From positions 1 through 32,958 of the IMG/VR virus record IMGVR_UViG_646862326_000003: a DNA stretch of 32,958 nt; one strand, given 5' to 3'. The first letter of the stretch is position 1, and each line of letters starts with the position of its first letter. This DNA comes from a virus (lineage: Duplodnaviria > Heunggongvirae > Uroviricota > Caudoviricetes). Shown here one piece after another: positions 7,793 to 27,546 of the stretch. A program made the translations under genes and the position numbers. The notes beneath the pieces were generated by a model, which saw only the letters and a list, made by a program, of their open reading frames with translations, had not been told where the DNA came from and searched no databases.

Positions 7793-8524
7793 ATGGATAC
7801 TATAATCGCTTTTCTATCACTCGCTTTTTTCGTTGCTTTCTTCATCGGGTTAATCAAGCCATCACTGGTGCGAATGCCAAACCGCAAACGTGCAAGTGCG
7901 GTTTATCTCGGAGGAGGTTTTGTATTGAGCATAATTGGTTCAATACTCTATCCAACAGAAAAAAGCCAGCCAGTTGCTAAAACTGAAACATCAACCGTTG
8001 CAGAACACAAAGTCCAAAAAACATTCGAATATGGTGAAAAAACACTCAAGGAATATCGGAACGAGTCAAAGAAAACACGACACGATATTGTGAATAGTTA
8101 CATTGATTTTAAGGAAGTTCCAGCCACCGCGTCAGATGCGTTTTATGCCTGCATGAGTGAGTATACATTTACCAAAGATGATGAGTTGAAACTCGGTGAT
8201 GTTCTTGGGTGGTGCTTTAATGATTATGAAAATGACCCGAATTCACTAAACAATAAAATCAATCTTGATACATTTCAGAGTAATTTTAGTGGTTGGGATG
8301 GTTCTTATCGTCCATTGGAAAAACTAATTAAAGATAATATGAACGATGATTCATCTTATAAACATGTGTCAACGGTATATCATCTGGTTTTGAATAAAGA
8401 CCCGCATGCCATTGTGAAAACCACGTTTCGCGGAACTAATGCTTATGGAGGAGTGGTGAAACAGACGATTGCTGCGCGTGTTGATATAAAAACTGGTAAG
8501 GTGATATCAATCATAGATAATTGA
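7793..8524 (+). CDS. AT-rich cargo gene 1: membrane protein with two N-terminal transmembrane helices and a C-terminal soluble domain (243 aa)
   Basis: Start placed at the ATG preceded by AAGGA (the track start 7751 has no Shine-Dalgarno). Hydrophobic helices IIAFLSLAFFVAFFIGLI and AVYLGGGFVLSIIGSILY. Visibly AT-rich relative to the structural genes. Sits in the P2 old/tin accessory position. Followed by a strong intrinsic terminator. Confidence 0.65.
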   Translation: MDTIIAFLSLAFFVAFFIGLIKPSLVRMPNRKRASAVYLGGGFVLSIIGSILYPTEKSQPVAKTETSTVAEHKVQKTFEYGEKTLKEYRNESKKTRHDIVNSYIDFKEVPATASDAFYACMSEYTFTKDDELKLGDVLGWCFNDYENDPNSLNNKINLDTFQSNFSGWDGSYRPLEKLIKDNMNDDSSYKHVSTVYHLVLNKDPHAIVKTTFRGTNAYGGVVKQTIAARVDIKTGKVISIIDN

Positions 8525-8533
8525 TATCTTACA

Positions 8534-8575
8534 ATGCCGACGCTGAATATTTAATTGGGTGTCGGCATTTTTTTT
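8534..8575 (+). terminator. Rho-independent terminator after cargo gene 1
   Basis: Perfect 8-bp stem ATGCCGAC (8534-8541) / GTCGGCAT (8561-8568) followed by TTTTTTT (8569-8575). Confidence 0.6.
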
Positions 8576-8635
8576 GACTATTAGAGCGGCAGAGCCGAGA
8601 TTTGTTACGTATGAGATTAGCACTGCGAGAATGTT

Positions 8636-9418
8636 ATGAAAGTTATAAACCAACTTAAGAAGTTTGATAAGAAAAGAACGCCAGATGATGGCCGTATTAG
8701 TTTGTTATATGAAAACGCGATTAAGTATGATATGTACTCTGTATATATTAAAGATAAAAATGATACAGAATACCTCTTTGACTGTTTGGTTGATGGGAAG
8801 ATAAAGGCTTTTAAATGGGATGATGAGGAACGTAGATTTCATATAAGTTCATACTTGGATATTTCTGAGCTTACGCCTGATTCTTTTTTTGGTATTTATT
8901 ACTACCGTGCGCATGAGTTGCGATTTAACTCTTTAAATGATTTAACCTTTTTAAGGGAGTTGTTTTTTAGAGTGAAGTCTAATTATGAAAATATAAAGTT
9001 TAGTCGTGAAAAATATATTTATCGACAGCAAAAAAAAGAAATAACTGATGTGATGCTTGTTCTCTCAACGATTATAAGAATGTATCGTGAACGGGATGCT
9101 GAAACTGTGTTTAGTGAGTTTTCAATAATGACCGAAGTCGCTGGTAGTTTATGGGTATACCATGACGATAAAAACAGGATGCGTAAAGAGCTTCGTTTAT
9201 GCCTGAATTCTCTTGTTCAGAATGGAGATCTTGTTGAAACAAGTAGTGGATTTAGGCTAACAGGAAAGGCACTGAACACAATATCTACATTCAATAAAGA
9301 TGAGTTGCGGTACAGAGAGAATTTGAGCACTCAGAAGAAAATGTTTTGGGCTACTTTTTTCGCAGCAGTCGGCGGCGTAGGAAGTATGATTGCAGCTATA
9401 ATAGGGCTTCTAAAATGA
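8636..9418 (+). CDS. AT-rich cargo gene 2: soluble domain with C-terminal transmembrane tail anchor (260 aa)
   Basis: C-terminal FWATFFAAVGGVGSMIAAIIGLL is a single predicted transmembrane helix. A 60-nt sample at 8641-8700 is 35% GC versus 58% for a sample at 13321-13380 in the capsid region. No recognisable catalytic motif. Confidence 0.65.
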   Translation: MKVINQLKKFDKKRTPDDGRISLLYENAIKYDMYSVYIKDKNDTEYLFDCLVDGKIKAFKWDDEERRFHISSYLDISELTPDSFFGIYYYRAHELRFNSLNDLTFLRELFFRVKSNYENIKFSREKYIYRQQKKEITDVMLVLSTIIRMYRERDAETVFSEFSIMTEVAGSLWVYHDDKNRMRKELRLCLNSLVQNGDLVETSSGFRLTGKALNTISTFNKDELRYRENLSTQKKMFWATFFAAVGGVGSMIAAIIGLLK

Positions 9419-24184: not shown

Positions 24185-24712
24185 ATGCAGCATTTAAAAA
24201 ATATTACTGCGGGTAATCCAAAAACTGTTGCCCAATATCAACTGACAAAAAATTTTGATGTTATCTGGTTATGGTCCGAAGAGGGAAAAAACTGGTATGA
24301 GGAAGTAAGTAATTTTCAGGAAGACACGATAAAGATTGTTTACGACGAGAATAATATAATTGTCGGCATCACCAGAGATGCTTCAACGCTTAACCCTGAA
24401 GGTTTTAGCGTTGTCGAGGTTCCTGATATTACCGCCAACCGACGTGCTGATGACTCAGGTAAATGGATGTTTAAGGATGGTGCTGTGATTAAGCGGATTT
24501 ATACGGCAGACGAACAGCTGCAACTGGCGGAATTACAGAAGTCAGCTTTGCTTTCCGAAGCTGAAACTATCATTCAGCCACTGGAACGCTCTGTCAGACT
24601 GAATATGGCAACAGATGAGGAGCGTAGCCGACTGGAAGCATGGGAACGCTACAGTGTTCTGGTCAGCCGTGTGGATCCTGCAAATCCTGAATGGCCGGAA
24701 ATGCCGCAATAA
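24185..24712 (+). CDS. G: Tail fibre assembly chaperone gpG (175 aa)
   Basis: [40 protein letters not shown] matches P2 G as recalled; immediately follows H. Confidence 0.88.
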
Positions 24713-25074
24713 GTTGTATGATCTCTGGAGTGAGCTAACGTATCTATAGCACAGAGTAAAGCCTAATCTGACAGTCTGCTCTGTGCTAGGAGCGGACTGA
24801 CCTGCTCCCCGATGATTAATACACAGCTATGCTAGTAATGTCCGTAGATCGCTGTGTGTTGCATCCATCGGTTGAACTCACAGTCCAAACCAGACTGTCA
24901 GCTTTGATTAGATTCTACCTACTCAACCTGTCAGATAAGGTCTGAGCTAATACATCTAATATATGGCTTTGTGCAGGGGACGGCTATCGCGAACGTTAGG
25001 CCAGGTATCTGAATACGCACAGTTCACTTGGTTGTACTTCTTGCACTGATCTGCTATCCCGCACAGCTATTTAT

Positions 25075-25123
25075 AGGTAATCTTCAGTGTATAATCTGCC
25101 AACTTATGGAAGCTTGTACAACA
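25075..25123 (+). promoter_or_regulatory. Candidate promoter -10 (TATAAT, 25080-25085) and Shine-Dalgarno AGGAG for the 280-aa cargo gene
   Basis: Perfect TATAAT about 40 nt upstream of the ATG; AGGAG (25113-25117) 6 nt before the ATG at 25124. The -35 element is weak. Confidence 0.4.
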
Positions 25124-25133
25124 GGAGAAATAT

Positions 25134-25976
25134 ATGAAAAAAGAATTGTTTGGACGTTGCCCGTTTGATCTTGACGAAGATGTAAAAAAAATAGCCGCGA
25201 TAAATAAATATATCCATGCAAAATTTGAGGAGCATAAAAATAAAATAGACAACCTAAAGGGTGTGGAACAAAAATTGATGGTCTTACAGTACTTTAATGT
25301 ACTGAATGAACTTAGTAATCAGGCTATCTCTTCTTTGAATATAGGAGCCTTTTCAGCATCGGAAGTATTAGCTAGGGTTATAATAGAACAGGCTGCCAAT
25401 CAATTTTATATAGCAATAGATGATGGCGAAAATGCACAAGCATTACTCAAGGCTAGTAAGAAATTAGTTCATAGTAATGGAAAACGGTGGCTGGAGTGTT
25501 TAAAATCCAAAGGAATGACTAATCCAGCAGCAAATGAAAGGATTCGCATGGGAAAAGAACTAACTGATCTATTTAATAGATTGTGGCCAAATACACCTGA
25601 ATATCCAGGAACCAGAAAACTTTTTGAATTAATTGGCTGGGAAACACACTATCATGCCCATTACGTTCCCCTTTGTGATTCAATACATACATTCTCTGAT
25701 GATATGGTAAATATAGTATCTCTATATAATGCAATCCAAAGTGATGAAACTACTGCTATCGAATTCATTCTTGCAGTTAAACAAGAAAATAAACGGCTGG
25801 CAATTTATAATTTTGTAATTGCTACGGCCCTTCGGTGTGAGGCCTTAGTAAATGTATTTAACTCTTTAGGTTATCAGGATATTATAACAGAAATGACACC
25901 AACAATAGATACAGTCAACCAGACTATAATTCGATATGATGATTTTGATCATTCCAGAATTGATGATTGTCAATAA
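25134..25976 (+). CDS. AT-rich cargo gene at the Z/fun position between G and FI: soluble protein of unknown function (280 aa)
   Basis: Coordinates as given in the ORF track; by my base count the ATG falls about 10 nt upstream, so the exact start needs checking against the sequence. A 60-nt sample at 25201-25260 is 25% GC. No transmembrane segment or recognisable catalytic motif. Sits between G and FI where P2 carries Z/fun. Confidence 0.7.
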   Translation: MKKELFGRCPFDLDEDVKKIAAINKYIHAKFEEHKNKIDNLKGVEQKLMVLQYFNVLNELSNQAISSLNIGAFSASEVLARVIIEQAANQFYIAIDDGENAQALLKASKKLVHSNGKRWLECLKSKGMTNPAANERIRMGKELTDLFNRLWPNTPEYPGTRKLFELIGWETHYHAHYVPLCDSIHTFSDDMVNIVSLYNAIQSDETTAIEFILAVKQENKRLAIYNFVIATALRCEALVNVFNSLGYQDIITEMTPTIDTVNQTIIRYDDFDHSRIDDCQ

Positions 25977-26082
25977 TTAATTGACAGAATACGTACATGC
26001 GCAACAACTAGTGATAGTTGACTTATTTTCGCTCTTGAGAGACAACCATACTCAAATCTCCCACATTGCAGGAGATTTGAAT

Positions 26083-26190
26083 ATGAAAACATCACCGTGG
26101 AATAAAGACCGTACCATCGGTCAAAAAAGGCCACTTCAGATATCTCATATCTGGGGGATCCGGATTAGACTTGAGTTGGAAGGTAAATAA
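26083..26190 (+). CDS. Small basic ORF (35 aa) with hairpin-sequestered Shine-Dalgarno; may be a gene remnant
   Basis: ATG 26083 with GGAGA 7 nt upstream. The Shine-Dalgarno is the 3' arm of a perfect 10-bp inverted repeat (26052-26061 / 26071-26080). The track's 69-aa version starts at a TTG. Confidence 0.3.
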   Translation: MKTSPWNKDRTIGQKRPLQISHIWGIRIRLELEGK

Positions 26191-26250: not shown

Positions 26251-26261
26251 TCTTTACCGGT

Positions 26262-26285
26262 GGTTGTGCTGTCGATTAGCCAACC
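26262..26285 (+). promoter_or_regulatory. Candidate Ogr-dependent late promoter element upstream of FI (dyad GGTTG-N14-CAACC)
   Basis: Partial dyad about 70-95 bp upstream of the FI ATG, the spacing expected for a P2 late-promoter activator site. Not verified. Confidence 0.35.
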
Positions 26286-26355
26286 GGGACAAATAGCCTG
26301 ACATCTCCGGCACAACTGAAAATACCACTCACCCATTAACCACGGAGTTAAACGG

Positions 26356-27546
26356 ATGAGCGACTATCATCATGGCGTGCAGGTGCTGGAGATTAACGAC
26401 GGCACCCGCGTCATTTCCACCGTATCCACCGCCATTGTCGGCATGGTCTGCACGGCCAGCGATGCGGATGCGGAAATCTTCCCCCTCAATAAACCGGTGC
26501 TGATCACCAATGTGCAGAGCGCAATTGCAAAGGCCGGTAAAAAAGGCACGCTGGCGGCATCGTTGCAGGCCATCGCTGACCAGTCAAAACCGGTCACCGT
26601 TGTCGTGCGCGTGGAAGACGGAACCGGCGACGACGAAGAAACGAAACTCGCGCAGACCGTTTCCAATATTATCGGCACCACTGACGAAAACGGTCAGTAC
26701 ACCGGACTGAAAGCCCTGCTGGCGGCGGAGTCGGTAACCGGTGTTAAACCGCGCATTCTCGGTGTGCCGGGACTGGACACCAAAGAGGTGGCTGTTGCAC
26801 TGGCATCAGTCTGTCAGAAGCTGCGCGCTTTCGGGTATATCAGCGCATGGGGCTGTAAAACCATTTCCGAGGTGAAAGCCTACCGTCAGAATTTCAGCCA
26901 GCGTGAGCTGATGGTCATCTGGCCGGATTTCCTCGCATGGGATACGGTCACCAGTACCACCGCCACCGCGTATGCTACCGCCCGTGCACTGGGCTTGCGC
27001 GCTAAAATCGACCAGGAGCAGGGCTGGCATAAAACACTGTCCAACGTCGGGGTGAACGGTGTTACCGGCATCAGCGCATCTGTATTCTGGGATTTGCAGG
27101 AGTCCGGCACTGATGCTGACCTGCTTAACGAGTCAGGCGTCACAACGCTGATTCGCCGTGATGGTTTCCGCTTCTGGGGTAACCGTACCTGCTCTGATGA
27201 CCCGCTGTTCCTCTTTGAAAACTACACCCGCACCGCGCAGGTGCTGGCCGACACGATGGCTGAGGCGCACATGTGGGCGGTGGACAAGCCCATCACCGCA
27301 ACGCTGATTCGCGACATCGTTGACGGCATCAATGCCAAATTCCGTGAGCTGAAAACAAACGGCTATATCGTGGATGCGACCTGCTGGTTCAGCGAAGAAT
27401 CCAACGATGCGGAAACCCTCAAGGCCGGAAAACTGTATATCGACTACGACTATACACCGGTGCCTCCTCTCGAAAACCTGACCCTGCGCCAGCGTATTAC
27501 CGATAAATACCTGGCAAATCTGGTCACCTCGGTTAACAGCAATTAA
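26356..27546 (+). CDS. FI: Contractile tail sheath protein gpFI (396 aa)
   Basis: MSDYHHGVQVLEINDGTRVISTVSTAIVGMVCTASDADAE matches P2 FI as recalled; size 396 aa. Confidence 0.92.
   Translation: MSDYHHGVQVLEINDGTRVISTVSTAIVGMVCTASDADAEIFPLNKPVLITNVQSAIAKAGKKGTLAASLQAIADQSKPVTVVVRVEDGTGDDEETKLAQTVSNIIGTTDENGQYTGLKALLAAESVTGVKPRILGVPGLDTKEVAVALASVCQKLRAFGYISAWGCKTISEVKAYRQNFSQRELMVIWPDFLAWDTVTSTTATAYATARALGLRAKIDQEQGWHKTLSNVGVNGVTGISASVFWDLQESGTDADLLNESGVTTLIRRDGFRFWGNRTCSDDPLFLFENYTRTAQVLADTMAEAHMWAVDKPITATLIRDIVDGINAKFRELKTNGYIVDATCWFSEESNDAETLKAGKLYIDYDYTPVPPLENLTLRQRITDKYLANLVTSVNSN

Follow-up and report, generated by a model that had tools for sequence, protein, structure and literature searches.

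Organization of the G–FI interval

The IMG/VR virus record IMGVR_UViG_646862326_000003 (Caudoviricetes) was analyzed over its positions 1 to 32,958, a stretch of 32,958 nucleotides (nt) referred to below as the window. The window is a P2-like prophage, and its segment 24600-26400 (1,801 nt compared) shows 100% identity with the P2-like prophage of Escherichia coli strains IHE3034 and MS7163. Between the tail fibre assembly gene G and the sheath gene FI, in the slot occupied by Z/fun in phage P2, lies an AT-rich open reading frame (ORF) of 280 amino acids (aa). The firmest new result of the analysis is that this ORF is carried as cargo by a small cassette with hairpins at its borders, beside the remains of a mini tyrosine recombinase gene encoded in a junction. 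The following features were distinguished in and around the interval:

24185-24712, plus strand: gpG tail fibre assembly gene, left neighbour, part of the P2 backbone (Pfam Caudo_TAP, E 6.7e-34; RefSeq annotation)
24765-24797, plus strand: left boundary element with the outer part AATCTGACA, where homology to the P2 backbone stops
24774-24797, plus strand: L hairpin, a 24-nt palindromic sequence GTCTGCT-CTGTGCTAGG-AGCGGAC (0.05 chance matches expected in the window)
24798-25089, plus strand: cassette leader, with extra copies of CAGACTGTCAG / CTGTCAG at 24877-24904 and 24928-24940
25090-25095, plus strand: TATAAT -10 box without a matching -35, kept in an 87%-identical lambdoid variant
25123-25127, plus strand: AGGAG Shine-Dalgarno sequence, 6 nt ahead of the ATG
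25134-25976, plus strand: DUF5677-family gene with an ATG start, encoding an all-alpha protein of 280 aa
26020-26043, plus strand: decayed R hairpin GACTTAT-TTTCGCTCTT-GAGAGAC (by manual comparison, 8 of 10 loop positions as in the R type; stems decayed)
26047-26085, plus strand: hairpin with 15-nt arms that are 93% complementary
26083-26187, plus strand: tyrosine recombinase pseudogene, a 35-codon remnant of a 200-aa protein (RefSeq 'integrase, incomplete')
26183-26188, no strand: junction with GTAAA microhomology; the P2-type backbone resumes at 26188
26259-26332, plus strand: P2 pF late promoter region (activator site and transcription start) in intact backbone, transferred from NC_001895 by alignment
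26356-27546: FI sheath gene, right neighbour

The coordinates and length of the ORF agree with those in a preliminary description made from the sequence alone, and the GC content of its sample at 25201-25260, given there as 25%, was recomputed as exactly 0.25. The GC content of the whole ORF is 0.342, compared to 0.515 for the window and 0.55-0.60 in the 300-nt windows flanking the ORF. This composition and the position between gpG and FI bear out the view that the gene is AT-rich foreign cargo in the Z/fun slot. The ratio of nonsynonymous to synonymous substitution rates (dN/dS), calculated against four diverged copies, is 0.22-0.35, which indicates a functional coding gene under purifying selection.

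Two other elements of that description had to be narrowed. The gene had been credited with its own promoter: the perfect TATAAT and the AGGAG Shine-Dalgarno sequence are present, but no -35 hexamer could be recognized for this TATAAT and a promoter scan gave no flag at the site, so that the -10 box is the only evidence left for the promoter. Similarly, the gap between G and FI had been said to hold a single ORF. The ORF is there, but so are a palindromic element, a decayed second element, a further hairpin and the recombinase pseudogene.

Boundary elements of the cassette

The left boundary of the cargo is a conserved hairpin (L) of the P2 backbone, found approximately 50-60 nt past the stop codon of G in P2, L-413C, 11W, P22H4 and S88. 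Folded as single-stranded DNA, the copy in the window has a free energy of -8.8 kcal/mol (z -3.9). A perfect 10-bp inverted repeat, TAGCACAGAG / CTCTGTGCTA, at 24747-24788 overlaps this hairpin and offers an alternative pairing; it is also conserved in P2.

Comparison of the G-FI slots of S88, 11W and P22H4, which carry unrelated cargo, revealed the element ATCTGACA-GTCyGCT-CTGTGCCARR-AGCGGAC to the left of the variable region and, just before the pF region, the inverted element GTCCGCT-TTTCGCTCAA-AGCrGAC-TGTCAGAT (R). Both are 24 nt long and share a 7-bp stem, but differ in their loops, which are of the type CTGTGCCAGG in L and TTTCGCTCAA in R. L-413C and P2 have an L copy, and P22H1 only an R copy under the search criteria applied. 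P2 contains in addition a weak R match (5 of 24 positions mismatched), and fun(Z) lies between the L element and this match.

When viral contigs were searched for the palindrome by itself, in which 14 bases are specified, at least 120 contigs gave hits. The raw count was not used as evidence, since hundreds of chance matches are expected for such a pattern. However, the loop in 94 of 131 palindrome matches was of one of the two 10-nt types or a complement of these, where about 1.4% would be expected. A scan that took orientation into account detected 212 elements in the retrieved loci (numbered L002, L008 and so on below), which total 1.5 Mb, and 0 in shuffled sequence. The repeat family is thus non-random. 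Copies were located in the window (24774-24797), L002 (3175-3198 and 5583-5606), L017 (836-859), L018, L019, L026-L029 and L036-L222.

The elements recur in the order L, cargo, R. Such brackets, which enclose cargo of 0.3-5 kb, occupy the G-FI slot of P2-like phages and occur in many other viral contigs, as well as in two enterobacterial loci. Tandem L...R units joined by junctions of R, about 18 nt and L were seen in L019, L039, L066, L111, L119 and L151, and less cleanly in L018; 'Bacterium BS0013' has arrays of this kind, as do several viral contigs, and those of Buttiauxella are less clean. Fifty-two units could be sorted into 37 cargo types of 1-3 genes each, with a GC content of 0.28-0.51. 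Defence genes among this cargo include PD-T7-1, PD-T7-5, ThsB/TIR, a UG17 defence-associated reverse transcriptase (DRT) with SLATT, and several PADLOC candidates (PDC).

On the right side of the DUF5677 gene, the decayed element at 26020-26043 has better-kept homologues of the R type, GTCCACT-CCTCGCTCAT-AAGGGAC in L047 and TCCGCT-TTTCGCTTAT-AAGGGAC in L157. Homology between BS0013 and the cassette also ends at this decayed R (S88 coordinate 4437). Because of this R homologue and this end of homology at 26020-26043, the DUF5677 cassette proper is taken to consist of L (from 24774), leader, gene and R' (to 26043). The leader is shared to different extents: homology starts at the L hairpin in Buttiauxella, at about 24850 in the lambdoid copies and at about 24914 in BS0013. 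No Rfam family was found in the 420-nt leader or at the junctions and elements, and the idea of a structured RNA in the leader or junctions was dropped on that account.

The recombinase and its junctions

The pseudogene at 26083-26187 derives from a small tyrosine recombinase (Pfam Phage_integrase, E 4e-17), which has 200 aa in Buttiauxella and 194 aa, with a replaced C-terminus, in S88. It amounts approximately to a bare catalytic domain; its residues 37-188 weakly match the XerD catalytic domain (E 0.004). The hairpin at 26047-26085, which folds with its flanks at -10.1 kcal/mol (z -3.6) and is conserved in L047, L157 and L018, encloses the GGAG Shine-Dalgarno sequence and the ATG of the recombinase gene, and probably serves the translational control of recombinase expression.

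In most carriers the locus is of the S88 type, which is 1,042 bp longer than that of the window and contains the DUF5677 gene, the 194-aa recombinase gene and a 125-aa ORF on the other strand. At the junction in the window, the rest of the recombinase gene, this hydrophobic ORF and the right-hand R hairpin, 1,046 bp in all, are absent. The 125-aa ORF (L002 5091-5468, minus strand) is strongly hydrophobic, has no family match and replaces the 3' end of the recombinase gene; many other E. coli genomes were hit by a 176-nt query that spans the 5' end of this ORF, the region upstream of it and the R element.

The 200-aa recombinase, whole or fragmentary, was identified in 67 viral loci, in many of which, as in the window, only fragments are present. 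Intact copies include L018 8950-9549, L047 9384-9983 and L157 4001-4600. Among copies with at least 82% identity, several loci have an R-type element 63 nt ahead of the recombinase start, and at least ten have an L-type element 22 nt past its stop. The cargo on either side varies between loci, and DUF5677 is the upstream cargo in 14 of 66 viral loci. The intact recombinase gene thereby has an R hairpin on one side and an L hairpin on the other, which places it at the junction between two cassettes. The composite junction of R, linker and L folds as a single long bipartite hairpin (-13.9 kcal/mol, z -3.7).

Two other arrangements were considered and dropped: an obligate two-gene system of DUF5677 and recombinase, since each is mostly found without the other, and a switch inverted by a recombinase of Fim size, since the predicted inverted junction (a chimeric sequence searched at at least 80% coverage) occurred in 0 of 5,426 complete E. 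coli genomes.

A more distant version of the locus was observed in Pseudomonas fluorescens EK007-RG4 (L024 6566-9709), with a DUF5677 homologue of 35% and a recombinase of 53% identity. The DUF5677 homologue is located there between two oppositely oriented recombinase pieces. A 41-nt inverted repeat lies inside the recombinase coding sequence, and a different pair of 19-nt inverted repeats, each arm of which appears by eye to be a small palindrome, flanks the DUF5677 homologue, with the recombinase pieces just outside. As the 41-nt repeat is only 83% complementary, an inversion and two decayed paralogous copies fit the split recombinase equally well.

The DUF5677 protein

The statement in the preliminary description that the product has no assignable motif is outdated. 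The protein scores 40.1 bits against Pfam DUF5677 (PF18928; gathering cut-off 27.1) over residues 50-194, matches PHROG 4167 over its full length (1-280 of 280, E 9.2e-202) and is labelled 'DUF5677 domain-containing protein' in RefSeq. In a Pfam scan (E <= 1) of diverse relatives, 74 of 74 matched DUF5677, the sole recurrent family. Neither DUF5677 nor PHROG 4167 has a function assigned to it. The possibility that the gene is a fun homologue was given up: BLASTP against P2 Fun(Z) (NP_046777) yielded an E value of 0.88, and fun(Z) encodes 528 aa on the opposite strand.

The protein had been called soluble, with which its grand average of hydropathy (GRAVY, -0.26) agrees, and neither a signal peptide nor a transmembrane segment was found in it. 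Its AlphaFold model is all-alpha, with ten helices, at a predicted local distance difference test score (pLDDT) of 90.5 and a predicted template modelling score (pTM) of 0.87. Across 95 family members, R81 is present in 100%, H185 in 99%, E85 in 98%, N89 in 96%, D190 in 89% and N193 in 82%; further conserved positions among DUF5677 relatives are E77, W119, P158, F164, Y173, D182, E218 and Y225, along with D190 and N193. With i, i+4 spacing, E77-R81-E85-N89 form a polar face on helix 3, and D182, H185, D190 and N193 one on helix 8. This conserved polar pattern would suit an active or binding site.

Distribution and genomic context

A word-indexed search placed the subfamily in 34 clusters, and 80 clusters at 50% identity were obtained among 1.84 billion representatives. 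With few exceptions, a full-length member is a stand-alone protein with a length of about 260-340 aa. The gene was identified in 57 of 5,426 complete E. coli genomes and in one plasmid; none was found in 50,697 deposited phage genomes. Thirty-eight of the E. coli carriers have a type at least 99% identical to that of the window, and the other 19 a type with about 92.5% DNA identity. Every examined copy of the former occupies the G-FI slot of a P2-like prophage (e.g. in S88, IHE3034, ATCC 11775 and APEC strains), and its carriers include strains of extraintestinal pathogenic (ExPEC) and avian pathogenic (APEC) E. coli such as S88, IHE3034 and APEC O1/O2. The copy of the latter that was examined (strain 2013C-4974) is situated in a lambdoid prophage region, and the same type is present in enteropathogenic E. 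coli (EPEC) E2348/69.

The leader and gene travel as a unit with 87-99% identity. They were found in P2-like prophages and immediately ahead of Septu in lambdoid prophages, as well as in Buttiauxella beside Tn3-type transposase and resolvase genes, and in an enterobacterium downstream of guaA. In the 87%-identical variant of E. coli lambdoid prophages (L008/L009) the recombinase gene is frameshifted and Septu follows directly downstream (PtuA, E 1e-165; PtuB, E 1e-83), succeeded by hok/gef, rusA and antiterminator Q genes.

More distant homologues keep similar company. One, located after a lambda P fragment, adjoins genes for an SMC/AAA_23 protein and a Cap4 nuclease; another, right after lambda P in an Erwiniaceae prophage, stands beside DUF4365, NADAR, PRTase-CE and a GAPS4-type PD-(D/E)xK nuclease. 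Other homologues neighbour ScoMcrA-like (ScoMcrA_N/NOV_C) and AAA_13 proteins, or, in a Burkholderia P4-like element, a UvrD helicase gene and an AcrVA2-like gene. In one lambdoid prophage a DNA methylase and an AAA_15/21 ATPase are encoded a few kb away from the homologue, while in 'Bacterium BS0013' a PLD-family nuclease shares the cassette with the DUF5677 gene.

Proposed function and alternative explanations

Relatives of the gene occupy accessory slots of prophages and satellites, where their neighbours are Septu, Lamassu-like, GAPS4-like and McrA-like genes; its function is therefore best read, provisionally, as anti-phage defence. That the gene acts in defence as cassette cargo is a proposal which we hold to be evenly balanced between right and wrong. 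On this view the DUF5677 protein would be an enzyme-like, all-alpha protein of the cytoplasm, predicted to be produced in the lysogen from the gene's own -10 promoter, and it would guard the lysogen against other phages as a single-gene defence that works by either exclusion or abortive infection. Hydrolysis of a nucleic acid or nucleotide is our guess at its activity. The cassettes may be exchanged at the L and R hairpins, either by the recombinase encoded in the junction or by a host enzyme; in the window the cassette would be fixed in place, because the recombinase there is dead.

A number of observations weigh against these proposals. No DUF5677 protein has had an activity demonstrated so far, and a Foldseek search of the PDB and BFVD returned no significant structural neighbour of the model. 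PADLOC-DB 2.0 models gave 0 families for the protein at E <= 1 and NCBIfam 0 matches, so that its assignment to a known defence family was dropped. The earlier suggestion of an undescribed single-gene defence protein therefore survives in modified form: the protein matches no PADLOC family, but its membership in DUF5677 had already been assigned, and it is a plausible candidate of this kind rather than fun. In the only assay reported, a distant Bacillota homologue was challenged with six Enterococcus phages; it is outside the positives listed in a preprint, and the same ORF was dropped from its published version. The Pseudomonas chromosomal homologues have no obvious defence genes adjacent to them. 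The status of cargo alone does not imply defence either, since L...R units also hold LysR regulators and oxidoreductases, besides an EAL protein, a NUDIX protein and a glyoxalase. As for the exchange mechanism, the S88 R copy folds no better than its shuffled counterparts (z +0.27), and the left ends of the shared sequence vary with the context (S88 coordinates 3175, 3250 and 3315), which also fits ordinary homologous or illegitimate recombination. Exchange driven by the recombinase, in the manner of integrons or dif modules, is deduced from the boundaries only, and we consider it tentative and somewhat unlikely.

Some of the same facts would suit a moron without a defence role, i.e. a lysogenic conversion or fitness gene (a regulator, or a metabolic or stress enzyme) that benefits ExPEC/APEC hosts, in which the type at least 99% identical occurs. 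The ordinary cargo of other units and the place of the Pseudomonas homologues among ordinary chromosomal genes speak for such a role. We nevertheless regard it as unlikely, given that five or more independent contexts place the gene beside bona fide defence genes and that the protein has no signal peptide, transmembrane segment, or metabolic or regulatory family match. The adjacent recombinase raises another prospect, namely that the protein is not an effector but an accessory (directionality or architectural) factor of site-specific recombination. It adjoins a homologous short tyrosine recombinase both in the enterobacterial cassettes and in P. fluorescens, and the DUF5677 domain is reported to be enriched beside, and predicted to be co-transcribed with, small serine recombinases in Bacillota. 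On the other hand, 52 of 66 viral loci have the recombinase but no DUF5677, most contexts of DUF5677 have no recombinase, and purifying selection maintains the gene even in the window and the lambdoid copies, whose recombinase is a pseudogene. A 280-aa protein with an enzyme-like polar pattern is also unlike the known small, basic directionality factors, and this role appears highly improbable.

A toxin of the HEPN RNase type, acting by abortive infection, is accorded a similarly slight probability, as it is not supported by motif or Pfam. No conserved Rx4-6H motif was detected: the sole RxxxxxH (R267-H273) does not belong to the positions that 70% or more of the wider family share, and the conserved R81 and H185 are 104 residues apart. 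Nor is a HEPN family among the 25 non-DUF5677 Pfam families listed for the 74 members (E <= 1), each of which was matched by one member. Least probable of all, in our estimate, is a counter-defence protein directed against host immunity. Accessory slots can hold such genes in general, and in the Burkholderia P4-like element the homologue has the AcrVA2-like gene as a direct neighbour, but the gene of the window lies in the late region with a stand-alone -10 box of the lysogen type and not in an early operon. With 280 aa and catalytic-looking residues it is larger than most inhibitors, and its neighbours are overwhelmingly defence genes. Anti-phage defence by the cassette gene thus remains the reading that we prefer.

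Taken at its widest, the proposal is that the hairpins and the 200-aa recombinase form a new, integron-like exchange system for accessory and defence cassettes of 1-3 genes, operating across the P2 slot, other prophages, transposon-associated regions and chromosomes, and that DUF5677 founds a new all-alpha family of single-gene defence proteins. This combined claim is put forward as doubtful, with a fairly low probability. It bears on a current question. A 2026 survey of P2/P4 hotspots reported that defence loci are swapped very fast, but could not say how cargo passes between P2 and other elements, given that the hotspots contain almost no transposable elements and that other mobile elements are unlikely to have homologous flanks. 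Palindromes or hairpins are not mentioned in that study. Hairpins that bracket the cargo and a mini recombinase in the junction would supply defined sites and an enzyme for this exchange. If this is true, scanning for the hairpins would be a cheap route to new defence cargo. The DUF5677 gene itself is rare, under purifying selection, has a product whose fold is predicted with confidence and lacks a solved relative, and is placed beside defence systems in several kinds of mobile element, which makes it a candidate for single-gene defence.

Other features of the prophage

In the early/regulatory part of the window, an IS1 transposase ORF (DDE_Tnp_IS1, E 6e-78) was located at 2889-3392 on the minus strand, and for this reason the prophage may be defective. 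The region 6875-9418, between gene A and Q, corresponds to the other accessory region of P2. It encodes an ASCH/DUF3850/DUF7415 protein (6875-7363) and two ORFs of 257 aa (7751-8524) and 260 aa (8636-9418) with no Pfam or PADLOC match. The two ORFs, which occupy the slot of tin and old in P2, form a second pair of uncharacterised candidates.

Comparison with known systems

P2 Fun(Z) is the product of a lysogenic conversion gene that blocks phage T5 and also brings about FUdR sensitivity. It resembles the present gene in its G-FI slot, in being AT-rich foreign cargo, and in the same L hairpin that precedes it, with the weak R-type match on the right. It differs in showing no sequence similarity and in the size and strand noted above. 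HEPN abortive infection proteins (AbiV, AbiD/F type) are set apart by the lack of a conserved Rx4-6H motif and of a HEPN Pfam match in the DUF5677 protein, and Foldseek gave no support for a link. Invertases of the FimB/FimE type are likewise tyrosine recombinases of about 200 aa with inverted repeats that flank a segment, but none of the 5,426 complete E. coli genomes has the junction predicted for an inversion.

Integrons appear to share several features with the cassettes described here: apparent arrays of short cassettes of 1-3 genes, palindromic junctions predicted to be structured, an associated tyrosine recombinase and defence cargo. Their recombinase IntI, however, has about 320 aa with a specific insertion, whereas the 200-aa enzyme linked to the hairpins is essentially a catalytic domain and is encoded in the junction instead of at the array's head. 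The present cassettes also carry their own leader and -10 box, hold genes in either orientation and reside in phage genomes. The core motif of integrons has the consensus GTTRRRY, which was not seen in these hairpins.

The pdif/Xer dif modules of Acinetobacter plasmids are modules of a few genes flanked by inverted palindromes that resemble recombination sites, with the 11-6-11 architecture of dif. Modules of one to a few genes, short inverted palindromes and the occurrence of the same module in unrelated replicons are common to both. The elements described here are built differently, with 7-bp arms and a 10-nt spacer (7-10-7) plus the outer part AATCTGACA, and a dedicated mini recombinase is linked to them.

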